A stretch of 64,000 nucleotides of DNA from an uncultured Gammaproteobacteria bacterium (lineage in GTDB: Bacteria > Patescibacteriota > Patescibacteriia > Magasanikbacterales > UBA10003), in the NCBI GenBank assembly GCA_964365025.1, contig CAYIOJ010000002.1, positions 20,208-84,207 on the forward strand, given 5' to 3'. The notes beneath the pieces were generated by a model. That model was not told the origin of the DNA, did no database searches, and saw nothing but the letters and a program-made list of their open reading frames with translations. This document shows positions 7,356 through 63,809 of the stretch, one piece after another. Numbering within the stretch: the stretch's first letter is position 1; each line of letters starts with the position of its first letter. The translations under genes and the position numbers were made by a program.

Positions 7356-7775
7356 ATGGCCGGATTATTTTTAATAATTGATGTTACTGATTTTGACAGG
7401 CTGGTCATGGCTTTTGGCGGCAGGGGGAAAACTATGCGCAAATCATGGAAAAAACTACCCGGCCGGCATTTGAATATCCTGTTATGTTTGGATAAATTTT
7501 TAAAGCGAGCCAAGACGAAACTGAAAGATTTGACCGGTTTAGTTTTATTGGAAGGTGGTGGCAGTTTTTCAGGTACGCGTCAGGCCGCGGCGATTTTAAA
7601 CACAATTTGCTTGGTGGAGAAAATTCCCGTTTTGGGATTGGATAAAAGAAAATACGGCGATGATCGGCAAAAAATTACGGAAATTGCGGAAAGATATTTC
7701 CGCCGGTCCCAAAAGGGTAAATTTATTAAGCCGATTTATAGCGGTGAACCGAATATCACATGTCCGACTATTTGA
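7356..7775 (+). CDS. tsaB: tRNA threonylcarbamoyladenosine biosynthesis protein TsaB (short single-domain form)
   Basis: Begins MAGLFLIIDVTD and carries LVLLEGGGSFSGTRQAAAILNTICL, the YeaZ/TsaB signature. The ORF opens at 7263 but the conserved start is at 7356. Confidence 0.65.
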   Translation: MAGLFLIIDVTDFDRLVMAFGGRGKTMRKSWKKLPGRHLNILLCLDKFLKRAKTKLKDLTGLVLLEGGGSFSGTRQAAAILNTICLVEKIPVLGLDKRKYGDDRQKITEIAERYFRRSQKGKFIKPIYSGEPNITCPTI

Positions 7776-9241
7776 AATATCGTTTTTTGGAAATTATTCC
7801 AGGTTTCATGGTCTGGTTTACTTTGATAATGTCCGTGGTTTTGTCGTTTATAAAACCGCTGTGGCTCATGTATTTTGTGATTGTGTTTGACCTGTATTGG
7901 TTTTTCCGCGTCAGTTATTTTATTTTTTATCTTTTTATTTCCGGTTGGCGTTTGAATCGCATCAAAAAAATTGACTGGCTGGCCAAATTGCGCCAGGAAA
8001 TTTTCGGCTGGGAAAATAAATATCATTTGATTTTTTTGCCCACGGCTAACGAACCGCTGAAAGTGATTGAGGGCACTTTTAAAGCGTTGACCGAGGCCGA
8101 GTATCCCTTGGATAAATTTATTGTGGTTTTATGCGGCGAAGAGCGTGGCGGCAAAGAAAGATTTTTAAATATCGCTGAAAAAATCAAAAATCAATTTGGC
8201 GATAAATTTAAAAAATTTATTATCACCGTACACCCGGACGACCTCGTGGGCGAAATCAAAGGCAAGGGGTCAAATTTGAATTATGCCGGACATTTGGTTC
8301 AAAAAATGATTGACGCCTGGAAAATTCCTTACGACGACATTATTGTCTCCAGTTTTGACATAGATACGCGCGTGCATCCGCAATATTTTGCCTATCTGAC
8401 GCATCTTTATTGCACCGAGTCGAGGCCGACGCACGCTTCGTATCAGCCGGTGGCGCTATACAATAATAACATTTGGCAGAGCAATCCTTTATTGCGCGTG
8501 ACGGCTTTTGGCACGACTTTTTGGATTATGACTGAATTGGAGCGGCCGGATCGGCTATTCACCTTTTCCTCGCACAGCATGTCTTTCCGCGCTTTGGTGG
8601 ATGTGGGGTTTTGGCAAAAAAACATCGTTACCGAGGATTCGCGTATTTTTTTACAATGTTTCTTGCGCTACAGCGGGGACTATCGCGTGGTGCCGATGTA
8701 TTTGCCGGTGTCCATGAACACGGCCGAAGGCGAACATTTTTGGGACAGCGTTAAAAATGTGTACAAGCAACAGCGGCGCTGGGCTTGGGGCGTGGAGCAT
8801 TTTCCTTTTATGGTGTGGCATTTCTTGCGGCACAAGCATATTCCTTGGGCGAAAAAAATAAAATATCTTTGGAATTTGGGCGAGGGGATGTATTCCTGGG
8901 CTTCGGCCCCCATTTTAATTTTTATTCTGGGCCGCTTGCCCTTGTATTTAGCGCCCGAGGCCGTGCGCGGTTCGGCTTTTTATCAAAACACGCCGTTCAC
9001 CCTGGAGTCGCTGATGAATTTGGCCATGGCCGGCATTTTGTTTTCCGCCATTTTTAATATTTTGCTTTTGCCCCGGCCGCCCAACTCCAAACCCTGGAAC
9101 TATCCAATTATGATTTTGCAATGGATTTTTTTGCCAATCACTTTAATTATTTTCGGCTCTATTCCGGCCATTGACGCGCAGACGCGGCTGATGCTGGGCC
9201 GTTATCTTGGTTTTTATGTCGCCAAAAAGAAAACTGATTAA
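7760..9241 (+). CDS. Membrane glycosyltransferase, family 2 (cellulose-synthase-like)
   Basis: N-terminal TM helices, a D,D,D-type GT-A core and a QQRRWAWG (QxxRW) motif, followed by C-terminal TM helices. Confidence 0.75.
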   Translation: MSDYLKYRFLEIIPGFMVWFTLIMSVVLSFIKPLWLMYFVIVFDLYWFFRVSYFIFYLFISGWRLNRIKKIDWLAKLRQEIFGWENKYHLIFLPTANEPLKVIEGTFKALTEAEYPLDKFIVVLCGEERGGKERFLNIAEKIKNQFGDKFKKFIITVHPDDLVGEIKGKGSNLNYAGHLVQKMIDAWKIPYDDIIVSSFDIDTRVHPQYFAYLTHLYCTESRPTHASYQPVALYNNNIWQSNPLLRVTAFGTTFWIMTELERPDRLFTFSSHSMSFRALVDVGFWQKNIVTEDSRIFLQCFLRYSGDYRVVPMYLPVSMNTAEGEHFWDSVKNVYKQQRRWAWGVEHFPFMVWHFLRHKHIPWAKKIKYLWNLGEGMYSWASAPILIFILGRLPLYLAPEAVRGSAFYQNTPFTLESLMNLAMAGILFSAIFNILLLPRPPNSKPWNYPIMILQWIFLPITLIIFGSIPAIDAQTRLMLGRYLGFYVAKKKTD

Positions 9242-23514: not shown

Positions 23515-23590
23515 GCCGTTGTAGCTCAGCTGGTAGAGCAACTCCATGGTAAGGAGTAGGTCCGCGGTTCAATTCCGCGCAACGGCTCCA
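23515..23590 (+). tRNA. tRNA-Thr (GGU)
   Basis: GCCGTTG acceptor stem, anticodon arm ACTCC-ATGGTAA-GGAGT, T-loop TTCAATT, and an encoded CCA. Confidence 0.85.
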
Positions 23591-23595
23591 CTTTT

Positions 23596-23678
23596 GGGTG
23601 GGTACCGAAGCGGTCAAACGGGGCAGACTGTAAATCTGCTGGCTTTCGCCTTCCTAGGTTCGAATCCTAGCCCACCCA
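23596..23678 (+). tRNA. tRNA-Tyr (GUA)
   Basis: GGGTGGG acceptor stem, anticodon loop CTGTAAA, and a long variable arm. It closely resembles bacterial tRNA-Tyr. Confidence 0.85.
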
Positions 23679-23700
23679 GGTAAGATTATCAAGCGGTCAT

Positions 23701-23777
23701 GGGCGGCTAGCTCACTTGGTTAGAGCGCTACATTGACATTGTAGAGGTAACAGGTTCGATTCCTGTGCCGCCCACCA
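23701..23777 (+). tRNA. tRNA-Val (GAC)
   Basis: GGGCGGC acceptor stem, anticodon arm CTACA-TTGACAT-TGTAG, T-loop TTCGATT, and an encoded CCA. Confidence 0.85.
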
Positions 23778-23778
23778 C

Positions 23779-23850
23779 GCCGCCTTAGCTCAGTGGTAGA
23801 GCAATGCTTTTGTAAAGCAAAGGTCCTCGGTTCAAATCCGAGAGGCGGCT
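23779..23850 (+). tRNA. tRNA-Thr (UGU)
   Basis: GCCGCCT acceptor stem, anticodon loop TTTGTAA on a TGCT/AGCA stem, and T-loop TTCAAAT. Confidence 0.75.
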
Positions 23851-23886
23851 AATCCATTGTTTTAAATTAATTTTTATTAAAAATTT

Positions 23887-24042
23887 ATGTCCCAGGACAA
23901 TCTTATCAAGTTAGAATGCACGGTTTGCAAGCGCGTGACGCATCATTCGCATAAAAATAAAAAAATTCTCAAGACCCGCTTGGAATTAAATAAATTTTGC
24001 AAACACTGCAAAAAGCACACCAAACATAAAGAGACGAAGTAA
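23887..24042 (+). CDS. rpmG: 50S ribosomal protein L33
   Basis: The 51-aa translation [51 protein letters not shown] is the L33 zinc-ribbon pattern. It is too short to appear in the supplied ORF track. Confidence 0.85.
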
Positions 24043-24051
24043 AGATTTTTC

Positions 24052-24123
24052 GTCATTGCGAGCCAGACTGTCCGAGAATTGTCATTGCGAGGAGCAAAGC
24101 GACGAAGCAATCTAGTAGCTCGG
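24052..24123. repeat. Two tandem partial copies of the GTCATTGCGAG...GAAGCAATC element
   Basis: GTCATTGCGAGCCAGACTGTCCGAGAATT followed by GTCATTGCGAGGAGCAAAGCGACGAAGCAATCTAG. Confidence 0.7.
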
Positions 24124-24176
24124 TGTTTATTTTTTAGTTTTACTCCTTGCAACGATCGTAACGGAAAAGTTTTTTA

Positions 24177-24250
24177 GGGGGCGTCGTATAGTGGTAGTAC
24201 TTTCCTCTCCAAAAGGAATAGCGTGGGTTCGATTCCTACCGCCCCTGCCA
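24177..24250 (+). tRNA. tRNA-Trp (CCA)
   Basis: GGGGGCG acceptor stem, anticodon arm TTCCT-CTCCAAA-AGGAA, T-loop TTCGATT, and an encoded CCA. Confidence 0.85.
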
Positions 24251-37069: not shown

Positions 37070-37099
37070 AAAACTCCTCTGATTTTCAGAGGAGTTTTT
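37070..37099. terminator. Bidirectional rho-independent terminator between the SPFH gene and convergent tsaE
   Basis: AAAACTCCTCTGA-TTT-TCAGAGGAGTTTTT. Confidence 0.8.
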
Positions 37100-37526
37100 G
37101 ATTTATTGAGATTTTTCTTTCGCCATTTTTTAGAATTGAGATTTTGATTTTTCGCGTTTGGAATTTTTTCAGCAGCGGCGCGATTTTTTCCGGCCATTCA
37201 ATGGCGCAGACAGTATCAGGCGCGGCCAAGTGCTCCAAAAGTCCGATGTCAATAACTTCTTGCGTTGAATGAAGACGATAGCAATCCAGATGAACAAATT
37301 GTTTTATCTTTTTTTGTTTTGGTAATTTATAAATTTTCATTAAATTAAAACTCGGACTGCGCACGGTTTGCTTAATGCCAAATCCAGACGCCAATCCTTT
37401 GATAAAAACAGTTTTGCCAGCTCCCAATTCTCCGGACAATGTTAAAATATCGCCCCCGCGCAAACCCGTGGCGATATTTTTGCCTAGATTGAAAGTTTGG
37501 GTTGTGTTATTGGAGTAGTAAAGCAT
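37086..37526 (-). CDS. tsaE: tRNA threonylcarbamoyladenosine biosynthesis ATPase TsaE
   Basis: Walker A GELGAGKT, then HLDCYRL and WPEKI motifs, 146 aa. It lies in the same open frame as folD upstream (see repeat 37531-37590). Confidence 0.75.
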   Translation of the reverse strand: MLYYSNNTTQTFNLGKNIATGLRGGDILTLSGELGAGKTVFIKGLASGFGIKQTVRSPSFNLMKIYKLPKQKKIKQFVHLDCYRLHSTQEVIDIGLLEHLAAPDTVCAIEWPEKIAPLLKKFQTRKIKISILKNGERKISINQKLL

Positions 37527-38435
37527 ATTTATGTCATTGCGAGCGCCTGCCTGCCGGCAGGCAGGAAGCGAAGCAATCTCGCGCCATTTTACAGTCAATA
37601 AATATACATTTTCCAAAAGCATGGCCACGGTCATTGGCCCCACGCCGCCTGGCACCGGTGTAATCCAGCCATTTTTGTCGCGCGTTGATTCAAAATTTAC
37701 ATCGCCGCAGATCGCGCCACTGCCAACCTGACCAGCAGGCAGGGGCAGGCGATTGATACCAACATCAATCACTATTGCGCCATCTTTAAAATTATCGCCA
37801 CGCAAAAAATTCGGTTGACCAACAGCAATGATTACAATATCAAATTGTTTGGTTATTGAGCCATCGAATTGTTTAGAGTGAAGATGGGAAGCGTCCAGTC
37901 CTTTTTGTTTTAAAAATAATTCCAAGGGCTCGGTAAAAGCATCGCTGTTGCCGATGATAAGGCATTTTTTCGCGTCCAGGCCGGCATTTTTTCGCGCGTC
38001 TTCAATTAAGCGCCAAATTGCTTTGGCTAAAACAGGTTCCACAGCCGGTTGGCCTTCTCGCATTTTTTTTACATTATCAGGATGAAATCCATCAACATCT
38101 TTGGTCGGGTCAATCGCGGCAATCACGCTGTTTGGATTGAGGGGGGATGGGAGTGGCAACTGTATTAAGATACCGTGAATGTTCGGCGCGGCGTTTAACT
38201 CTTGAATTTTTTGAATAATAGTTTCTTCCGCGGCGTCAGTTGGAAAAAGATATTTTTCAAAATATATTTCGGCCTCGGCGCAGGCCTTTTCTTTCAGGCG
38301 CACATACAAATGCGAGGCCGGATCATTGCCAACCAAAATAACACCAAGCCCCGGTGTAATTCCCAAGGCGGCGATTTTGTCTTTCAATTCCGCTCGGATT
38401 TTTTTGGCCAATGAGCGGCCGTCAATTAAACGCAT
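37527..38435 (-). CDS. folD: Bifunctional methylenetetrahydrofolate dehydrogenase/cyclohydrolase. There is no stop codon before tsaE
   Basis: Carries LVGNDPASHLYVRLKEKAC and PVPGGVGPMTVAMLLEN. The reading frame continues through the repeat into tsaE. Confidence 0.8.
37531..37590. repeat. GTCATTGCGAG...GAAGCAATC element with an internal CCTGCCTGCCGGCAGGCAGG module. It bridges folD and tsaE in-frame
   Basis: On the minus strand it translates without stops as KWREIASLPACRQAGARNDIN, joining the FolD C-terminus to the TsaE start Met. Confidence 0.75.
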
Positions 38436-40623: not shown

Positions 40624-41859
40624 TTAATACAGCGGAAATTTTTTCGTCAATTCCACCACCTGTCGGCGAATTTCTGCGAGCGCGGTTTCGTTCTGCCAAT
40701 TTTCAATTGCCTCGTCAATCCAGCCGGCAATTTGTATCATTTCAGTTTCTTTCATTCCGCGGGTGGTAATGGCCGGCGTGCCTAAACGGATACCGGACGG
40801 ATCCATTGGCGAGCGCGGGTCATCAGGCACCATATTTTTGTTCACGGTAATACCTGCCTTATCCAATGCAATCTGCGCCTGTTTACCAGACAGGCCTTTA
40901 TTTGTCACATCAATCAACAGCAAATGATTGTCCGTGCCGCCGAAACAGAGTTTGTAATCGCGTTTTTTTAATTCTTCTTCTAAAATTTTCGCGTTCTTTT
41001 TAATTTGCCGCGCGTAATCCTTGAAAGCCGGTTCCAACGCTTCTTTAAAAGCCACTGCTTTAGCCGCGATATTGTTTTCATGCGGCCCGCCTTGGAGTCC
41101 GGGAAAAACCGCTTTGTCAATTTGTTTGGCCCATTTTTCCTTGCACATAATCATACCGCCGCGCGGTCCGCGCAGTGTCTTGTGCGTGGTGGTGGTGACT
41201 ACATCAAAAATCGGCACAGGATTATTCATCTCTCCAGCGGCAATGAGCCCGGCAATATGAGCGATGTCCGCCATGGTCAAAGCGCCAACTTCATCAGCAA
41301 TTTTTTGCACAGCTTGGTAATCGATCTCGCGCGAATAGGCCGAGTAGCCGACCAAAATCATTTTTGGCTTGTGTTCCAAAGCCATCTGCCGCAGATTTTC
41401 CAGATCAATCAAGCCCGCAGAATTTGTTTTGTAGCGCACAAAATTGAAAATCTGCGCCATGTGGGTGACTGGATGGCCATGCGTCAAATGCCCGCCGTGT
41501 GATAAATCCATGCCAAGTATTGTCTCGCCAGGTTTAAGCAAAGCAAAATACACCGCGATGTTGGCCGGCGCGCCGGAAAGCGGTTGGACATTGACATGCT
41601 CGGCGCCAAAAAGTTGCTTGGCGCGATCAATGGCCAACTGCTCAACTTCATCAATAAATTGACATCCGCCGTAGTAGCGCTTGCCAGGATAGCCCTCGGC
41701 ATATTTGTTGGTTAAAATTGAACCAAGCGCTTCCAATACTGCGGGAGATACAAAATTTTCCGATGGAATCATTTCCAGTCCTTCTTCTTGCCGCTGTTTT
41801 TCGCGTTTAATCGCGGCGTGAATGTCCGGATCAAATTGTTGGAGTGTTTGTTTGTGCAT
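40624..41859 (-). CDS. glyA: Serine hydroxymethyltransferase
   Basis: Carries the PLP-lysine motif [14 protein letters not shown] and [20 protein letters not shown]. Confidence 0.9.
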
Positions 41860-42012
41860 AATAAACCCCCGCGGGGTATTTTATCTGCGCTTGCTCGGAA
41901 ATGAAAAATTGCGGTTTTTTATTTCTCTCGCTTCGCTTGATAATAAAAAATAAAAAAATTATTCATCTTCGTCCGTTTCATTCATTTTATTTAAACTCCA
42001 ACGATTCAAAAA

Positions 42013-42420
42013 TCATAGCCCCTTTTTGTAATCTTTTATAACTTCATAAACATTTGGCGCGCAATCGGACGGCAAATTGTCAATGTCATGCCAGCCCCAT
42101 TCTATAGTTTGAGGTCCCGGATTGATTTCTCCAATTCTTTCAGCTAGGAAATGTACTAAAATGGCTAAACTCCCCTCAACACCTATACGGTGTACCATCC
42201 TTGTTTGTAATGGTTTGATGATTTTTACATCAATACCCATCTCTTCTTTTACTTCGCGTCGGCAGGTTTCTTCCAGTGGAATATCAAAATCTTCAACCAT
42301 ACCGCCCGGAAACATCCACATATCCGAGCCGTGCTCTTTTTTCTCCTTATTTAAGAGGACTTTATTGTTTTCAATTATCACCGGTCCTGAGGCGACAATT
42401 GAGTTGGGGGGTAATATCAT
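42013..42420 (-). CDS. NUDIX hydrolase
   Basis: Nudix box GGMVEDFDIPLEETCRREVKEEMGI. Confidence 0.85.
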   Translation of the reverse strand: MILPPNSIVASGPVIIENNKVLLNKEKKEHGSDMWMFPGGMVEDFDIPLEETCRREVKEEMGIDVKIIKPLQTRMVHRIGVEGSLAILVHFLAERIGEINPGPQTIEWGWHDIDNLPSDCAPNVYEVIKDYKKGL

Positions 42421-42576: not shown

Positions 42577-42966
42577 ATGATGTGCGCGCAAAGCAGTGAT
42601 CATATCCATGTCAGTGATCACGCCTTGGAACGATTTCGTCAAAGGCGGGTACGACTGGGGTTGGATGATTTCGACGGCAACATAATGATGCTGGAGGCAG
42701 AACTTCGGCGTATCTTCGCTCAGAGTACGAAATTGGATATCACGAAATTGCGCAATTGGAGGGAACGCAGAAGGAAATATCCGGATTCAACTTATTTTCG
42801 CAACGAGCGTTTTGTTTTGGTGATGAATTTTGCCAACAACACGCTGGTCACTTGTTTTCTGTTTCAGGGACGCCGCGCCACGCGCCTCAAACCCAGAGAC
42901 CGCGATGAGCGAGCGCACCACAAGACGGTTCTGCGTCGGCACTTGCACGAAGGCGGAGAACTTTAA
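42577..42966 (+). CDS. Basic hypothetical protein inside GC-rich island 2 (possibly a small toxin-like or nucleic-acid-binding protein)
   Basis: 129 aa, Arg-rich, with AGGAGG and AAGGGGG Shine-Dalgarno elements upstream. The region is about 52% GC. The N-terminal HVSDHALERFRQRRVRL is faintly like DUF4258/RelE-type small proteins. Confidence 0.35.
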   Translation: MMCAQSSDHIHVSDHALERFRQRRVRLGLDDFDGNIMMLEAELRRIFAQSTKLDITKLRNWRERRRKYPDSTYFRNERFVLVMNFANNTLVTCFLFQGRRATRLKPRDRDERAHHKTVLRRHLHEGGEL

Positions 42967-42994: not shown

Positions 42995-44620
42995 TCATTT
43001 GCCTCGACGGCTTCGTCGGGGCAGTTTTTTTACCATGTAAGTTTTTTGTAGTTTGTAACCAAGTTTTTTATAATATCCGCGCACGCCAATGCCAGAGATA
43101 ACTGCGATTGTATCCGCGCCGTGTTCGCGGGCGATTTTTTCCGCTTCGGCAATCAAGCGTCGACCCAAACCGCGATGTTGGCTGGCTTTTTTTGACCTTT
43201 GGCCAAGCGGCATAAGTTGGCCGTAAGTGTGCAGTTCGCGGATAAAAGCCGGATACAGGCCCCGGGCGTCCAGGCGCAGGCGGCAGAAAGCAAAAACCGC
43301 GCGCCGCGCCGTATCTTCAAAACTTAAAAAATATTCCGTGCCGCCGGACGCTTCATATTGATCAATAAATAATTTGATTTTGGCCGGATGACTAAGTTGT
43401 TGGTGCCCGATTTCTCGGCAACGCAAACATTGGCAGGTGAGTCCGTCTTCAACCATTTTAGCTTGAATTATTTGACGCAAGTTGGTCGCTAGATTGCCCG
43501 CGATTATTTCCGTGGAAGGAATGTCGCGAATCAGACGCGAGATTCGGCAATAGCGCGGAATAATTTTTGATTTTACTTTCATCAGCATGGCAATCAGTTT
43601 TTTATCAGCGTAGGGTTTGAATTGGCCTTTTTTATACCAGCGGTACAGTTCGGAATTGATAACAACCGTGCAGGGATAAATTTTAATCATATCCGGCCGC
43701 AAATCAGGGTCGGCAAAAATTTTTTCAAACATTTTGTAATCCTTGGTCGGAGTGGAGCCTGGCAATTGCGGCATTAAATGAAAATCAATTTTAAATCCAT
43801 AGCCGCGCAATAACGCGGTTGCTTTTTTCGCGTCTTCAATAGTATGCCCGCGTTTTGTTAGGCGCAAAATTTTGTTATCAGTATGTTGTATTCCCATTTC
43901 CACGCGAGTGCAACCCAAGATACGCATTTGCCCGGCTGTTTTATGAGTGATTAAATCCGGCCGTGTTTCCAAAGTCAGGCCGATCAGACGATGAGCCGCG
44001 GTTTCATTTTTTTTCTGCGTCATTGCGAGGGAGCGCAGCGACCGAAGCAATTTCGTTGATTTTGGTACAACGAGATTGCTTCGCTTCGCTCGCAATGACG
44101 CGGTAAACTCATTTGTCGCCCTAAAACACTCTTTGATAAACCAAACTTGATATTTCCAAGGATAAACGTTCCAGCTGCCGCCTTTTACAATAAGTTCAAT
44201 CTTGTCGGTTAGGTGCCCATTGTTGTAAAGCATCTGTAAGCGGGAAATAACTTGATTATACGGATTAAATTTGTTAAAATAAGCGCGTTGGGCAGCCGGC
44301 TCGCTTTTAAGATAACTTTTTGGCATGCCCGGCTCCAATGGGCAATAAATACACTGTCCCGGGCATGGCCAGGGCTTGGTCAAAACAGTGACGATGGCCA
44401 CGCCTGAAAGTGTGCGCACCGCGCGTTTTTGCAAAATGGATTCCAACAGCGCCGAGGATTTTGTTTTTTTTCCAGCAACCAGACGCCTATATTCTTTTAA
44501 AACTTCGGCTGTGGATGGCGCGCTGCGGAAATTCAAACGCGACCAACTGTTTTTCAATTCGTCAAGTCGTGGGCGCGTCAGGCCTTTCTGTCGGATTAAT
44601 TTTTTGATGAAAGTTTTCAT
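42995..44620 (-). CDS. elp3: Elp3-like radical-SAM/GNAT enzyme (elongator catalytic subunit homologue)
   Basis: Radical-SAM region (CPGQCIYCP) followed by a C-terminal GNAT domain (QHRGLGRRLIAEAEKIA). The ORF opens at 44722 but the Met at 44620 (MKTFIKK) is the likelier start. It contains an in-frame repeat at 44038-44120. Confidence 0.7.
   Translation of the reverse strand: MKTFIKKLIRQKGLTRPRLDELKNSWSRLNFRSAPSTAEVLKEYRRLVAGKKTKSSALLESILQKRAVRTLSGVAIVTVLTKPWPCPGQCIYCPLEPGMPKSYLKSEPAAQRAYFNKFNPYNQVISRLQMLYNNGHLTDKIELIVKGGSWNVYPWKYQVWFIKECFRATNEFTASLRAKRSNLVVPKSTKLLRSLRSLAMTQKKNETAAHRLIGLTLETRPDLITHKTAGQMRILGCTRVEMGIQHTDNKILRLTKRGHTIEDAKKATALLRGYGFKIDFHLMPQLPGSTPTKDYKMFEKIFADPDLRPDMIKIYPCTVVINSELYRWYKKGQFKPYADKKLIAMLMKVKSKIIPRYCRISRLIRDIPSTEIIAGNLATNLRQIIQAKMVEDGLTCQCLRCREIGHQQLSHPAKIKLFIDQYEASGGTEYFLSFEDTARRAVFAFCRLRLDARGLYPAFIRELHTYGQLMPLGQRSKKASQHRGLGRRLIAEAEKIAREHGADTIAVISGIGVRGYYKKLGYKLQKTYMVKKLPRRSRRGK
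44038..44120. repeat. Complete palindromic GTCATTGCGAG...GAAGCAATC element (83 bp) inserted in-frame in elp3
   Basis: The sequence is CGTCATTGCGAGGGAGCGCAGCGACCGAAGCAATTTCGTTGATTTTGGTACAACGAGATTGCTTCGCTTCGCTCGCAATGACG. On the minus strand it reads ASLRAKRSNLVVPKSTKLLRSLRSLAM. Confidence 0.75.
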
Positions 44621-44622
44621 GT

Positions 44623-45375
44623 ATGCATTTGAGCGAGGCAAAAAAGATAATAAAAAAAGTTGAAAATGATTACGACGCCGTGGCGCGCGACTGGGATACA
44701 TCGCGATTTTCCGCCAGAGCAAGTCAGATTAAAATTGCCAATCAAATAAAAAATGGCGAGAGATTGCTGGATGTTGGCTGCGGCAATGGTGTATTTTATC
44801 CTGTTTTAGCTGATAAGTCAATCAATTATGTGGGAATGGACATTAGTAAAAAATTATTGGCGTTGGCCAGTCAAAAAGCGCGAAAAATTAAGAGCGGGTC
44901 CAAGGTAAAATTTATTAAAGGCAGTATTACCAAATTGCCGTTTAGAAATAATCAATTTGATTGGGTGTGCGTTTTCGCGGTTTTGCATCATATTCCAAGT
45001 GAGGAATTACGATTGCGCTCGGCGCAAGAAATTTGGCGCGTGTTGAAACCCAGTGGCAAAGTAATAGTGACTGTTTGGAATATGTTTTCCAATTGGGCTG
45101 AAAAAAAATTTAACATCAATGAACAATTGAAAAATATTCACGAAGGATTTGACCATGGCGACGTAATAATTCCGTGGAAGGGGACTGTTGGCAAAGTAAT
45201 TCAAAGATACATGCGCGCGTTTGCTAAAAATGAATTGAGCAAATTATTTAAAGACGCGGGATTTAAAAAGGTTTCGACATATTACGCCATCAAAGAAATA
45301 GGAGTAAAATCACAGAATGCCAAAGAGGGGAAGAATTTGGTTTTGATGGCAAAAAAAGCAGGCGGAGGCAGATAA
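44623..45375 (+). CDS. Class I SAM-dependent methyltransferase, Trm9-like
   Basis: The N-terminal VENDYDAVARDWDTSRFSAR resembles the Trm9/ALKBH8 N-terminal pattern. Motif I is LDVGCGNGVF. The start lies 3 nt from the divergent elp3 start. Confidence 0.6.
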   Translation: MHLSEAKKIIKKVENDYDAVARDWDTSRFSARASQIKIANQIKNGERLLDVGCGNGVFYPVLADKSINYVGMDISKKLLALASQKARKIKSGSKVKFIKGSITKLPFRNNQFDWVCVFAVLHHIPSEELRLRSAQEIWRVLKPSGKVIVTVWNMFSNWAEKKFNINEQLKNIHEGFDHGDVIIPWKGTVGKVIQRYMRAFAKNELSKLFKDAGFKKVSTYYAIKEIGVKSQNAKEGKNLVLMAKKAGGGR

Positions 45376-45422
45376 TTTTTGAAGCGATGATATGTTTGAG
45401 CCAGATCGAGGCATCCTGCTAT

Positions 45423-45499
45423 AGGGGGCGCGCAAATATCTTTTTTTGCGCTGCGGACTCATCGCCGCGACTGCAAAAAAAGAAATTTGCGCGCCCCCT
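45423..45499. repeat. Type-2 palindromic element: outer inverted repeat AGGGGGCGCGCAAAT, inner TTTTTTTGC...GCAAAAAAA around a GCTGCGGACTCATCGCCGCGACTGC core
   Basis: Nested palindromes. The core matches the reverse complement of the core of the element at 47006-47073. Confidence 0.7.
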
Positions 45500-45509
45500 A
45501 ATCAAGAAT

Positions 45510-46994
45510 ATGGATTTAGCGACGATTAAAAAAATTCACTGCGTAGGCATTGGCGGAATTGGCGTATCAGCTATTGCCAAGTTTTTTTTGTCGCTCGGCG
45601 CGACTGTGACTGGTTCCGATGTTTCATCCTCGGTTATTACGCAGGATTTGGAAAAACGCGGAGTGAAAATTTTTTATGGACACAAGGCCGAAAATGTTTC
45701 AAATGATGTTGATTTAATAATTTATTCTCCTGCTGTGCCCAAAGACAATCCCGAGCGGCAAAAAGGCATCCAAGAATTATCTTATCCTGAATTTTTGGGA
45801 GAATTATCAAAACAATATTTTACCATCGCCATTTCCGGCACGCACGGCAAAAGCACCACTACGGCTTTGATTGGCTTGATTTTGGAGGCGGCGGGTTTTG
45901 ATCCATTGGTAATTGTCGGGTCGCGCGTGCCCGGCTGGGAGTTGGGCAATATCCGCCTTCCCGCGTCATTGCGAGCGCCTGCCCCTGCCTACCGGCAGGC
46001 AGGTGCCGACAAGGCAGGCGAAGCCGAAGCAATCCCGAACAATAAAAAAATTTTTGTGGTAGAAGCCTGCGAACATCAGGCCAATATGCTCAATTTGTGT
46101 CCGCAGGCCGTGGTAATCACCAATATAGAGCCGGACCATTTGGATTTTTATGGCAATTTTGATAATGTTAAAAGCGCTTTTCAAAAGTTCGTTCGTTTGG
46201 TTCCTAAAAATGGGCTGGTGATTTTTAATGGCGATAGAGAGGCGGAATTGGATTGGAATTATGCCAGGCCAAGCATGTGGAAATTAATTTGGCAGGTTTT
46301 ATTCAGCCGCCGCGTCAAATGGCGCAGTTTTGGTTTTAAGACGCCCAATGATTATCAGGCTCTGGATAGAGAAGTAAAAAATGGCAATCAGTTTTTTAAT
46401 GTTCAAAGTGGGTTGTCCAAATTTCATGTAAAATTAAGTATCCCCGGTAAGTTTAACGCGTATAATGCTTTGGCAGCCATGGCTGTGGTGCTGGAACTTG
46501 GCGCACCAGTGGAAGTTTGTCAGAAAGTTTTAGCGAATTTCAAAGGTATTTGGCGCCGGTTTGAAATTTTAAAAGAAAAGCCATTGATTATTTCCGATTA
46601 TGGCCACCACCCGACAGCTATTGCCGAAACTGTGAAGGCCGCGCGCGAATTTTATCCCGGTCGGCGCGTGGTTTTGGTGTATCAGCCGCATCAGCATCAT
46701 AGAACAAAAATGTTATTCAATGATTTTGTTTCGGCTTTGGCTTTACCAGATGTATTAATTTTATCAGATATATATGATGTGGCAGGCAGAGAAGAGGTAA
46801 CAGATCAAGATGTAAGTTCTGAAAAGATTTTGGAGGCGATAAAAGTGTCGGGTGGAGCGGGCGAGTATTTTTACAGTGGCGATTTGGCCACCACCGAACG
46901 ATTAGCGCGAGAGATTATAAAAGAAAGCGATGTTATATTGGTGATGGGAGCTGGGGATGTAGATATCATTGCCAGGCATCTATCTATATTTTGA
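45510..46994 (+). CDS. murC: UDP-N-acetylmuramate--L-alanine ligase
   Basis: Carries GIGGIGVSAIA, GTHGKSTTT and a C-terminal Mur ligase domain. The conserved start is the Met at 45510. A 26-aa in-frame repeat insertion lies at 45964-46034. Confidence 0.85.
   Translation: MDLATIKKIHCVGIGGIGVSAIAKFFLSLGATVTGSDVSSSVITQDLEKRGVKIFYGHKAENVSNDVDLIIYSPAVPKDNPERQKGIQELSYPEFLGELSKQYFTIAISGTHGKSTTTALIGLILEAAGFDPLVIVGSRVPGWELGNIRLPASLRAPAPAYRQAGADKAGEAEAIPNNKKIFVVEACEHQANMLNLCPQAVVITNIEPDHLDFYGNFDNVKSAFQKFVRLVPKNGLVIFNGDREAELDWNYARPSMWKLIWQVLFSRRVKWRSFGFKTPNDYQALDREVKNGNQFFNVQSGLSKFHVKLSIPGKFNAYNALAAMAVVLELGAPVEVCQKVLANFKGIWRRFEILKEKPLIISDYGHHPTAIAETVKAAREFYPGRRVVLVYQPHQHHRTKMLFNDFVSALALPDVLILSDIYDVAGREEVTDQDVSSEKILEAIKVSGGAGEYFYSGDLATTERLAREIIKESDVILVMGAGDVDIIARHLSIF
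45964..46034. repeat. GTCATTGCGAG...GAAGCAATC element (with a CCTGCC...GGCAGG module) inserted in-frame in murC
   Basis: The sequence is CGTCATTGCGAGCGCCTGCCCCTGCCTACCGGCAGGCAGGTGCCGACAAGGCAGGCGAAGCCGAAGCAATCC. It translates as ASLRAPAPAYRQAGADKAGEAEAIPN between conserved MurC segments. Confidence 0.75.
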
Positions 46995-47005
46995 ATTACG
47001 AATAA

Positions 47006-47073
47006 GGGATGTGCCTATTCTTTTTTGCAGTCGCGGCGAAGTCCGCAGCAAAAAAAAGATATAGGCACATCCC
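47006..47073. repeat. Type-2 palindromic element, second copy: outer inverted repeat GGGATGTGCCTAT, with the core in opposite orientation
   Basis: The sequence is GGGATGTGCCTATTCTTTTTTGCAGTCGCGGCGAAGTCCGCAGCAAAAAAAAGATATAGGCACATCCC. The two type-2 copies bracket murC. Confidence 0.7.
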
Positions 47074-48400: not shown

Positions 48401-48943
48401 ATGGTACCAAGCAAAATTTTTTTCACGAAAGGCGTGGGGAGGCACAAAGATTATCTGCAGTCATTTGAGCTGGCGCTTCGCGACGCCGGCATTCAGCCGT
48501 ATAATTTGGTGAATGTCTCCAGTATTTTTCCTCCGGGATGCAAACGAATCAGCAAAGAGGAAGGCGCGAAAATTTTAAAGCACGGCGAGGTGGTTTTCTG
48601 CGTCATGGCGCGCAATGCCACGAACGAGCCGAATCGCCTGATTGCCGCTTCAATCGGCTTAGCCTTGCCGGCTGATGAAAGTCAGTATGGTTATCTTTCA
48701 GAGCATCACCCTAACGGCGAAACAGATGAAAAAGCCGGTGAATACGCCGAGGATTTAGCCGCCTCAATGTTGGCCAACACTTTGGGTATAGAATTTGACG
48801 CCAATCAATCCTGGGACGAACGCGAGCATGTGTATAAAATGAGCGGTAAAATCGTTAAGACCACCAATATCACCCAATCGTCCGAAGGCCACAAAGACGG
48901 GCTCTGGACTTCAGTGGTGGCGGTGGCGGTGCTTGTGCCATAA
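48401..48943 (+). CDS. pdaD: Pyruvoyl-dependent arginine decarboxylase
   Basis: [11 protein letters not shown] start, a VSSIFPPG Ser-Ser self-cleavage site, and the ~180-aa length of the PdaD/AaxB family. Confidence 0.7.
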
Positions 48944-48947
48944 TAAT

Positions 48948-48977
48948 GTCATTCTGAGCCCGTAGGGCGAAGAATTT
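48948..48977. repeat. GTCATTCTGAGC...GAAGAAT short variant of the element family
   Basis: The sequence is GTCATTCTGAGCCCGTAGGGCGAAGAATTTT. Confidence 0.6.
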
Positions 48978-49001
48978 TAATTTAATTTTAAAAAATAAAA
49001 T

Positions 49002-50168
49002 ATGCCAGAAATGTCCAAGGGGGCCATGTTATTCACTTCCGAATCCGTGACCGAAGGTCATCCGGATAAAATTTGCGATCAGGTGTCTGACGCTATTTTA
49101 GATAGTTTAATTGCTCAAGATCCGGGGTCGCATGTGGCAGTGGAGGCCTTTACCACCACCGGACTTATGATTGTCGGCGGTGAAGTAACCACGCGCGGGT
49201 TTGTGGATGTGCAAAAAGTGACGCGCGGTGTTTTAAGAAATATCGGTTATGTTAATCCGGAATACGGTATTGATTGCGACGACGCCGGAGTTTTGGTTTC
49301 CATTCATGAACAATCGCCGGACATTGCCCAGGGCGTCAATCGCGCCACCACCGAAGAACAGGGGGCAGGGGATCAGGGTTTGATGTTTGGTTATGCCTGT
49401 ACTGAAACGCCGGAGTTGATGCCGTTGCCCATTATGCTAGCCCATCATTTGGCTAAAAAATTGTCCGTTGTGCGCAAAAAAGGTGTTTTGCCGTATTTGC
49501 GTCCGGATGGCAAGTCGCAGGTGGCGGTGGAATATCGCGACGGTAAGCCGGTGCGTTTGCACAATGTGGTAATTGCCGCCCAGCATAATCCCGAGATCTC
49601 CACCGAGCAATTGCGCGCCGATATTATTGAACAAGTAATAAAGCCGGTGTGCGGCCAATATCTGGACGCGCAGACTGAATATCATATTAATATGACCGGC
49701 CGTTTTGTGGTCGGCGGGCCGCAGGGGGATACCGGCCTCACCGGCAGAAAGATTATTGTTGACACTTACGGCGGCATGGGTCGGCATGGCGGAGGCTGTT
49801 TTTCCGGCAAAGATCCGTCCAAAGTTGATCGTTCCGGCGCCTACATGGCGCGTTATGTGGCTAAAAATATAGTGGCGGCCGGCTTAGCCGAGCGTTTGGA
49901 GGTACAAATTTCCTATGTTATTGGCCGCGCTTTGCCCACGAGTGTGTCAGTCAATGCCTTTGGCACAGGCAAATTGTCTGATGACAAATTAGTGGAAATT
50001 GTTAATAAGCATTTTGATTTGCGGCCGGCTAAAATCATTGAGCACCTGCAATTATTGCGACCGATTTACCAGAAAACAGCGGCTTACGGTCATTTTGGCA
50101 GAAACGAAGAAGAATTTAGCTGGGAAAAAACAGACAAAGTTGAAGAATTGAAACAATATCTCGTCTAG
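49002..50168 (+). CDS. metK: S-adenosylmethionine synthetase
   Basis: Carries [28 protein letters not shown] and [16 protein letters not shown]. Confidence 0.9.
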
Positions 50169-63728: not shown

Positions 63729-63809
63729 TGTCATTGCGAGGAGGCGAAGCCGACGAAGCAATCTCATATCTAGAATTGCGAGATTGCTTCGCTACGCTCG
63801 CAATGACAG
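63729..63809. repeat. Complete palindromic GTCATTGCGAG...GAAGCAATC element (81 bp), intergenic
   Basis: The sequence is GTCATTGCGAGGAGGCGAAGCCGACGAAGCAATCTCATATCTAGAATTGCGAGATTGCTTCGCTACGCTCGCAATGAC. Confidence 0.75.

Follow-up and report, generated by a model that had tools for sequence, protein, structure and literature searches.

The stretch of DNA analysed here (the window, 64 kb of contig CAYIOJ010000002.1) carries a divergent pair of genes that encode a stand-alone Elp3 and a class I S-adenosylmethionine (SAM)-dependent methyltransferase. The elp3 gene lies on the minus strand (42995..44620) and encodes a protein of 541 amino acids with radical SAM and Gcn5-related N-acetyltransferase (GNAT) domains. 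The methyltransferase gene lies on the plus strand (44623..45375) and encodes a protein of 250 amino acids, matching Methyltransf_11 and predicted to be a Trm9-family tRNA (cm5U34)-O-methyltransferase, where cm5U34 is 5-carboxymethyluridine at the wobble position. The two start codons face each other in the arrangement CAT-gt-ATG (44618..44625, both strands), as read directly from the plus strand (...ttttCATgtATGcat...), with their first bases 3 nucleotides apart and 2 nucleotides between the codons. An earlier note on this DNA had described such a head-to-head pair, and both genes lie as it described. The nearest database proteins to those of the window are from Candidatus Magasanikbacteria.

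The longest minus-strand open reading frame (ORF) over elp3 extends from 42995 to 44722, with a TTG start at 44722. The ATG at 44620 is taken to be the start of elp3, because the family model TIGR01211 matches from residue 6 and the five closest Elp3 homologues all begin MKT.... Since there is no intergenic region between the two genes, each promoter must sit within the coding sequence of the partner. A consensus scan returned a lone sigma-70-like site for elp3 on the minus strand (44821-44793), inside the methyltransferase gene, and such sites were not enriched over shuffled sequence in the overlap region. The 2-nucleotide geometry is also found in a related Magasanikbacteria contig (L001/L002), and gaps of 1-13 nucleotides are found in other loci (L017 and L021) of the candidate phyla radiation (CPR).

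The window Elp3, Elp3 homologues and the in-frame repeat

The window Elp3 scores 546.9 bits against TIGR01211 (cut-off 350), with residues 6-533 matching profile positions 4-522 of 522, and its Pfam domains are Radical_SAM, Radical_SAM_C and Acetyltransf_1 (GNAT, residues 479-522). The radical-SAM [4Fe-4S] motif C86-PGQ-C90-IY-C93 (CPGQCIYCP; 44342..44365, minus strand) aligns with the cluster motif of the M. infernus enzyme (MinElp3), the spacing being Cx3Cx2C in the window Elp3 and Cx4Cx2C in MinElp3, and its cysteines are invariant in 10 CPR Elp3 proteins (alignment A4). Also invariant in these 10 proteins are the Cys triad C396/C398/C401 in the interdomain linker (43418..43435, minus strand), which corresponds to the prokaryote-type Zn site, and residues Q481, H482, G484 and G486 of the GNAT acetyl-CoA motif A, Q481-H-R-G484-L-G486 (43163..43180, minus strand). 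The Zn-binding Cys triad in the linker of prokaryotic Elp3 has been described previously (PMC6367351). Among the Protein Data Bank (PDB) structures, MinElp3 matches with 420 bits in an alignment that starts at query residue 12, whereas the D. mccartyi enzyme (DmcElp3) matches with 377 bits and only from residue 65; eukaryotic Elp3 proteins reach about 300 bits. The window Elp3 therefore carries a MinElp3-like, archaeal-type extended basic N-terminus, with about 64 N-terminal residues more than DmcElp3. MinElp3 needs this N-terminus to bind tRNA, and DmcElp3 is without it (PMC6367351, PMC7663514). Like MinElp3 (PDB 6IA8/6IAZ) and DmcElp3 (5L7J), the window protein combines radical SAM and GNAT domains with the prokaryotic Zn-type Cys triad and has no Elp1/2/4/5/6 partners; unlike them, it contains an in-frame palindromic repeat in a surface loop. 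Judged by its sequence, the window Elp3 is genuine and complete.

The historical annotation of Elp3 as a histone acetyltransferase, which persists in some database names, would fit an alternative in which the window Elp3 is not a tRNA enzyme (e.g., it is a protein acetyltransferase or has another radical-SAM role) and the methyltransferase belongs to that pathway. We consider this alternative extremely improbable: acetyl-CoA hydrolysis by bacterial, archaeal and eukaryotic Elp3 proteins depends on triggering by tRNA (PMC6367351), and the window protein retains all catalytic motifs as well as the tRNA-binding N-terminus. Elp3 homologues were found in at least 6049 protein clusters at E ≤ 1×10−20 (scored among the 8000 candidates sharing most words), so that the earlier view of bacterial Elp3 as rare is outdated. 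All named organisms among the best 120 clusters are Patescibacteria lineages (mostly Magasanikbacteria) or unclassified bacteria.

The palindromic repeat of about 97 nucleotides (44011..44107, minus strand) interrupts a variable surface loop of Elp3 (approximately residues 173-200) without disturbing the reading frame and consists of nested inverted repeats with arms of 22, 16 and 11 nucleotides. Its core is TCATTGCGAGCGAAGCGAAGCAATC, and it encodes ...SLRAKRSNLVVPKSTKLLRSLRSLAMT.... A homologue with 84% identity (P0108) is without the repeat, and three closer relatives share it. A 25-mer core of the repeat is found once more in the window (63782-63806), against a chance expectation of 0 copies.

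Linkage of Elp3 and the methyltransferase across bacteria

In three contigs with homologues of the window methyltransferase (79%, 37% and 37% identity), an Elp3-type radical-SAM gene is found divergently upstream in all three cases, with different flanking genes. A scan of one genome per species of the Genome Taxonomy Database (GTDB) with a 10-sequence methyltransferase alignment returned 80 species-representative loci. Methyltransferases were counted as signature-type if they scored at least 110 bits against the hidden Markov model (HMM) of the family alignment A1 and carried the Trm9 residues, and as generic if only motif I was shared; 50 of the 80 loci are signature-type and 30 are generic. 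A full Elp3 ORF is located within 8 kb in 38 of the 50 signature-type loci, divergently in 37 of these 38 and mostly within about 350 nucleotides, and two further signature-type loci end inside an Elp3 fragment. Among the 48 signature-type loci with enough upstream sequence to be evaluated, 40 have an adjoining Elp3, compared with 0 of the 30 generic loci (P = 1.4×10−14, Fisher's exact test). The linked loci belong to many classes of Patescibacteria, to Chloroflexota (Anaerolineae, Caldilineaceae, Aggregatilineales and Chloroflexia), to Myxococcota and to some proteobacterial-labelled bins, and a few of these labels may be unreliable.

The linkage can also be seen in the reverse direction, for which four contigs and loci L090-L093 were available, a metagenome scan with Elp3 having given only 5 loci. 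All four CPR Elp3 homologues sampled on long contigs have a divergent methyltransferase of 235-242 amino acids, and L090 and L091 also have a divergently adjoining methyltransferase. Altogether, the divergent pair recurs in 46 non-identical loci of several phyla, and the pairing is therefore not a product of chance. Clustering of the neighbouring ORFs in these 46 loci yielded no third conserved gene beside the pair: serine hydroxymethyltransferase (SHMT), FolD and Mur ligase genes recur only within lineages, and an HD-domain gene, which separates the two genes in L008, recurs in only 3 loci. Across several bacterial phyla, elp3 and the methyltransferase gene behave as one conserved evolutionary unit. 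The earlier note had held that a lack of conserved linkage would speak against its proposal; the linkage is in fact conserved in both directions and across phyla.

In one patescibacterial locus (L010), which has no Elp3 within 8 kb, the methyltransferase gene lies directly downstream of, and on the same strand as, an ORF of 155 amino acids (7461-7928), the N-terminus of which resembles, by eye, SpoU/TrmH-type RNA 2′-O-methyltransferases.

Relationship of the methyltransferase to Trm9

Since a search of the PDB with the single methyltransferase sequence was not discriminating, a family profile built from the 28-member methyltransferase alignment A1 was used against 177,635 PDB sequences. The best match is Trm9 of Y. 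lipolytica (5CM2 chain Z, 5cm2_Z; 99.3 bits, E = 1.7×10−27), extending over residues 3-187 of the 205 in the chain and taking in the C-terminal segments D-V-x-V-P-W and R-Y-Y-H. When A1 was aligned with a profile of ten bona fide fungal Trm9 proteins (alignment A3) using hhalign, the probability was 100 and the E-value 1×10−42, with 204 aligned columns that run from the N-terminal helix as far as the N-W motif at the C-terminus; the identity between the methyltransferase and Trm9 over aligned columns is 26%. Against the fungal Trm9 profile, the window methyltransferase alone reaches 149.8 over 188 columns, compared with 56-107 for the 30 generic methyltransferases, which align over a median of 105 columns, that is, the Rossmann core only. 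In scores against the fungal Trm9 HMM (77.7 bits for the window methyltransferase, 66-125 for its CPR-type relatives and 15-42 for the 30 generic methyltransferases), the margins between Trm9-like and generic proteins are moderate. An AlphaFold2 model of the methyltransferase has a predicted local distance difference test score (pLDDT) of 94.4, and a Foldseek comparison of this model with the PDB gives Trm9 the highest target-normalised TM-score (0.80) and the lowest root-mean-square deviation (3.4 Å) among the 50 matches listed. The entry 6F5Z is Hvo_0019 and not Haloferax Trm9, and archaeal Trm9 structures lie outside this structural comparison. The window protein resembles the eukaryotic Trm9/ALKBH8 methyltransferase domain (Y. 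lipolytica Trm9-Trm112, 5CM2) in its class I fold, in the same extra beta-hairpin region and in an alignment from end to end. The motifs common to the window methyltransferase and Trm9 are Y..IA..F..(S/T)R, D.GCGNG, A(V/I)(L/I)HH, VW, D(V/L).(V/I)PW and RY.H.

Pfam assigns the protein to class I Methyltransf_11, with Ubie_methyltran also among the matches, and all 25 NCBIfam families listed fall under their cut-offs; some databases name homologues 'UbiE', and a few homologues carry automated labels 'TRM9' or 'ALKBH8'. The presence of Ubie_methyltran, MenG and UbiG among the Pfam and NCBIfam matches, the 'UbiE' names and the poor discrimination by fold alone would be expected if the methyltransferase were an ordinary small-molecule enzyme of the UbiE/UbiG/MenG type, or another non-tRNA enzyme, that lies beside Elp3 only through inherited synteny or chance. 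Its scores against the corresponding models are, however, far under the cut-offs, both for MenG/UbiE (TIGR01934, 65.3 bits, cut-off 158; NF001243, 65.3 bits, cut-off 235) and for UbiG (TIGR01983, 56.2 bits, cut-off 103). Moreover, the C-terminal half of the methyltransferase aligns specifically with Trm9, the pair is kept in Patescibacteria, Chloroflexota and Myxococcota despite unrelated flanks, and none of the 30 generic methyltransferases is near an Elp3. This alternative is thus strongly disfavoured, and we regard it as very improbable; Trm9 is favoured over UbiE/UbiG, a grouping that the earlier note had singled out as the one that would contradict it.

Mutagenesis of yeast Trm9 has shown that R29, D72, H116, W145, W168, R241, Y243 and N271 are needed and that H115 contributes, and docking has placed Y18 near the carboxylate of cm5U (Létoquart et al. 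2015, PMC4678810). The yeast enzyme is inactive with H116A and retains about 10% of its activity with Y243A. We have mapped these yeast residues onto the window methyltransferase with hmmalign and hhalign, and 9 of the 10 are kept. The yeast residues R29 and D72 correspond to R28 and D73, both invariant in the methyltransferase family; Y18 and W145 correspond to Y17 and W152, both nearly invariant; and W168 and R241 correspond to W185 and R195, both conserved in most family members. The catalytic His pair that positions the cm5U carboxylate, H115/H116 in yeast, is H122-H123 in the window protein (44986..44991, plus strand), of which H122 is nearly invariant and H123 invariant. The yeast residue N271 corresponds to N238, which is N in most family members and D, S or E in some. 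It is also evident that R28, the His pair, W152 and the RY.H motif are kept in nearly all of the 50 signature-type loci. The SAM-binding motif I, L49-DVGCGNG-56 (44767..44790, plus strand), is identical to the Trm9 DxGCGNGKY motif, with D50, G52 and G54 invariant and C53 and N55 nearly invariant in the family; in fungal Trm9, G64-C-G-N-G-K-Y70 is invariant.

A neighbour-joining tree was built from 54 signature-type methyltransferases, 10 fungal Trm9 proteins and the 30 generic methyltransferases, the Trm9 sample being fungal only. In this tree, fungal Trm9 and all signature-type methyltransferases form one clade without any of the 30 generic methyltransferases, and the methyltransferase of the archaeal locus L028 is the sister of fungal Trm9. 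The earlier note had seen a resemblance to Trm9/ALKBH8 in the N-terminal signature of the methyltransferase; this resemblance extends to an end-to-end alignment with fungal Trm9, to Trm9 as the first PDB match of the family profile and to the active site. Together with the linkage, these results suggest that the methyltransferase is very probably a Trm9-family homologue functionally coupled to Elp3.

The methyltransferase family is large, with about 2,486 clusters at 50% identity (E ≤ 1×10−30, full-library search). Among the longer family members (P0475 and others), we have found no informative fusion; one member has an added WecG glycosyltransferase domain, possibly as an artefact of gene calling.

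Predicted wobble uridine modification and the genes around the pair

The pair probably constitutes a two-gene bacterial version of the archaeal/eukaryotic-type modification of wobble uridines to derivatives of cm5U (xcm5U34) in a Magasanikbacteria-like CPR bacterium. By family membership, Elp3 would bind the tRNA anticodon stem-loop via its extended basic N-terminus and central cleft, and would attach a carboxymethyl group to C5 of U34, using its radical-SAM [4Fe-4S] and GNAT acetyl-CoA sites, to give cm5U. The formation of cm5U34 from acetyl-CoA and SAM is established for archaeal Elp3 and Elongator (PMC6367351). The methyltransferase would then move the methyl group of SAM onto the cm5U carboxylate to give 5-methoxycarbonylmethyluridine (mcm5U34), as its homology, active-site conservation and gene linkage suggest. 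Within its active site, R28 and H123 are predicted to position the carboxylate, H122 and N238 to recognise the uracil, and W152 and W185 to stack. Overall, we think it probable that the pair makes mcm5U34 by these two steps. The earlier note had asked whether the pair forms a complete (m)cm5U34 pathway. That suggestion is largely supported by the Trm9-like methyltransferase and its conserved linkage to Elp3, with the reservation that no Trm112 partner was found in the window or near the pair loci.

Among the known systems closest to the pair is the archaeal Elp3-Trm9 route of Haloferax volcanii and Sulfolobus solfataricus, in which Elp3 without the other Elongator subunits is followed by Trm9-type methyl esterification. 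In Sulfolobus solfataricus, elp3 lies in a cluster with trm9 (PMC2584109), and mcm5U is on record for Haloferax. The window pair differs from the archaeal route in being bacterial, divergent and widespread in Patescibacteria and Chloroflexota, and Haloferax Trm9 needs Trm112 in vivo. Like eukaryotic Trm9, the window methyltransferase is coupled, here genetically, to the maker of its putative substrate; unlike it, the methyltransferase has a bacterial host, has Met at a variable position in place of Y243, and has no Trm112 partner detected in the window or near the pair loci. The MnmE/MnmG pathway (with MnmC) for xm5U34 and the enzyme CmoM have the same target, C5 of the wobble U34, but the enzymes and chemistry of MnmE/MnmG are unrelated, with GTPase, flavin adenine dinucleotide (FAD) and methylene-tetrahydrofolate in place of radical SAM and acetyl-CoA. 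CmoM, which acts in the formation of uridine 5-oxyacetic acid (cmo5U), likewise methyl-esterifies a wobble-base carboxylate.

A number of observations speak against a Trm9 activity that acts with Elp3. In the single-sequence PDB search, Trm9 was only the 7th match, and an uncharacterised M. mazei methyltransferase was first; with the A1 profile, the lead of Trm9 over this archaeal protein (3SM3, 91.9 bits) is about 7 bits. Chloroflexota-type linked methyltransferases overlap generic methyltransferases in their scores against the Trm9 HMM. Foldseek ranks Trm9 third by E-value, and class I methyltransferases are hard to separate by fold alone. In the neighbour-joining tree, bootstrap values are only 35/60 (58%) for the grouping of Trm9 with the window methyltransferase and 24/60 (40%) for Trm9 with all signature-type methyltransferases. 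The tree, with the generic methyltransferases excluded from the clade, is consistent with Trm9 orthology and does not establish it. In the active site, the equivalent of Y243 is M197, at a position variable across the family, and R198 is found where the family and fungal Trm9 have His. As for the linkage, L092 and L093, whose Elp3 is 48% identical, lack a methyltransferase in the 2.5-6 kb available upstream. Eight signature-type methyltransferases (L010, L026, L028, L029, L041, L043, L044 and L059) have no Elp3 within about 5-8 kb, and one of these, L028, is from a Nezhaarchaeales archaeon.

The remaining points of this kind concern Trm112, which is required by eukaryotic Trm9 and, in vivo, by Haloferax Trm9. 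A low-sensitivity single-sequence phmmer search with an approximate E. coli YcaR query detected no Trm112-like ORF in the 64-kb window or up to 4 kb from the 46 pair loci. The hydrophobic residues of Y. lipolytica Trm9 that contact Trm112 are V59, F78, V102, A110, P112 and F116, E100 is a hot spot, and the corresponding yeast positions N89, L91 and F105 (equivalent to E100, V102 and F116) are interface positions at which Lys, Arg and Glu were introduced. In the window methyltransferase, three of the six hydrophobic contacts are polar or charged (V59 to R47, F78 to N68 and P112 to R108), the other three correspond to I98 (V102), P106 (A110) and F112 (F116), and the E100 hot spot is Lys (K96). 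Since the Trm112-contact residues are not conserved, it is plausible that the window methyltransferase is independent of Trm112, and it may act without such a partner altogether.

These deviations could also be explained if the methyltransferase works with Elp3 on tRNA in a reaction other than that of Trm9, so that the end product is not plain mcm5U. It might methylate another atom of xcm5U34 or a neighbouring base, esterify another carboxylated wobble base in the manner of CmoM with cmo5U, or act on the 2-thiolated form only. Gene linkage indicates functional coupling and not chemistry, and the loss of the Y243 equivalent, the replacement of His by R198 and the non-conserved Trm112 interface would all be in line with such a change. 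Furthermore, Haloferax trm9 mutants accumulated no cm5U, and archaeal xcm5U chemistry can take unexpected routes. Against this explanation, the residues for the carboxylate (R28 and H123), the uracil (H122 and N238) and stacking (W152 and W185) are all kept. Nor do the 60 best PDB matches of the methyltransferase sequence or of the family profile include a chain with the name CmoM or SmtA, no direct comparison with these enzymes having been made. On balance, we consider a reaction other than that of Trm9 unlikely, and formation of mcm5U34 remains the preferred interpretation.

A broader and more tentative proposal, which we find somewhat doubtful, is that Elp3 and a Trm112-independent Trm9 form a self-sufficient cassette that makes mcm5U34 in several phyla (above all in CPR and Chloroflexota), was acquired and has spread as a unit and replaces or coexists with MnmE/MnmG. 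If this were the case, Trm9 would have an older origin and a wider distribution than has been assumed, and its need for Trm112 would have been added later, in archaea/eukaryotes. The clustering of Elp3 and Trm9 in Sulfolobus and mcm5U in Haloferax are already known, and what appears new is the bacterial pair, possibly independent of Trm112. A review of 2017 stated that homologues of Trm112-dependent methyltransferases, Trm9 included, were undetectable in bacterial genomes (PMC5372719), and a review of 2020 limited bacterial Elp3 to Dehalococcoides and saw no evidence of xcm5U derivatives (PMC7663514); a paper of 2026 reports Elp3 in 'numerous bacteria' and mentions no methyltransferase partner. 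We have found no description of a bacterial Elp3-Trm9 pair in the searchable literature, including that on Patescibacteria/CPR Elp3, Patescibacteria tRNA modification and Chloroflexi mcm5U. If the pair does make mcm5U34, a wobble chemistry held to be archaeal/eukaryotic would be a common bacterial trait too, it would become directly testable how the Elongator/Trm9 pathway originated and is related to MnmE/MnmG, and small, soluble and possibly Trm112-independent Trm9 enzymes would be available for structural work with tRNA. The finding also provides a concrete rule for annotating thousands of genes that at present carry the label 'class I SAM-dependent methyltransferase' or 'UbiE'.

The window contains a cluster of five tRNA genes (23515-24250: Thr-GGT, Tyr-GTA, Val-GAC, Thr-TGT and Trp-CCA), in which Thr-TGT is the sole U34 tRNA of the window. 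None of the classical substrate tRNAs of mcm5U and 5-methylaminomethyluridine (mnm5U), namely Lys, Glu, Gln, Arg-UCU and Gly-UCC, is encoded in the 64-kb window.

On the other side of elp3, an ORF of 129 amino acids (42577-42966, plus strand) converges on the elp3 3′ end and matches no Pfam or NCBIfam model. It is likely to be a genuine conserved hypothetical gene, since L001/L002 have a called gene that agrees with it in length and position and likewise lacks a Pfam match. Several CPR lineages share a syntenic Elp3-(NUDIX)-SHMT-(FolD) block downstream of elp3 (window 40624-42420; L095-L098), and the NUDIX gene of the window encodes 135 amino acids (42013-42420). FolD (residues 4-280) and TsaE (residues 309-441) are found in a single ORF of 449 amino acids (37086-38435, minus strand), joined by a repeat-like linker (...REIASLPACRQAGARNDI...), and the related contig L001 has them as two distinct genes that overlap. 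The joined ORF could be a repeat-mediated in-frame fusion or an effect of sequencing or assembly.

Two intergenic palindromes are located on the methyltransferase side of the pair. One (45422-45500) lies just 3′ of the methyltransferase stop codon and has arms of 28 nucleotides with 96% complementarity, and the other (47006-47073) lies between murC and murB and has arms of 21 nucleotides. The murC ORF as listed (45387-46994) spans the first palindrome; the true start of murC is probably near 45510, because the Mur ligase domain begins only at residue 49. Between conserved ligase segments, MurC also has an insert of low complexity and repeat-like character (...LRLPASLRAPAPAYRQAGADKAGEAEAIPNNKK...), which resembles the inserts in Elp3 and in the FolD-TsaE ORF.

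Further downstream (48401-50168), a Pfam-confirmed pyruvoyl-dependent arginine decarboxylase gene is followed by an ORF of 388 amino acids that matches the SAM synthetase (MetK) of L001, and in L001 an arginase-family gene is found after MetK. This polyamine/SAM cluster is located 3 kb from the genes of Elp3 and the methyltransferase, the two predicted SAM-consuming tRNA enzymes of the window.

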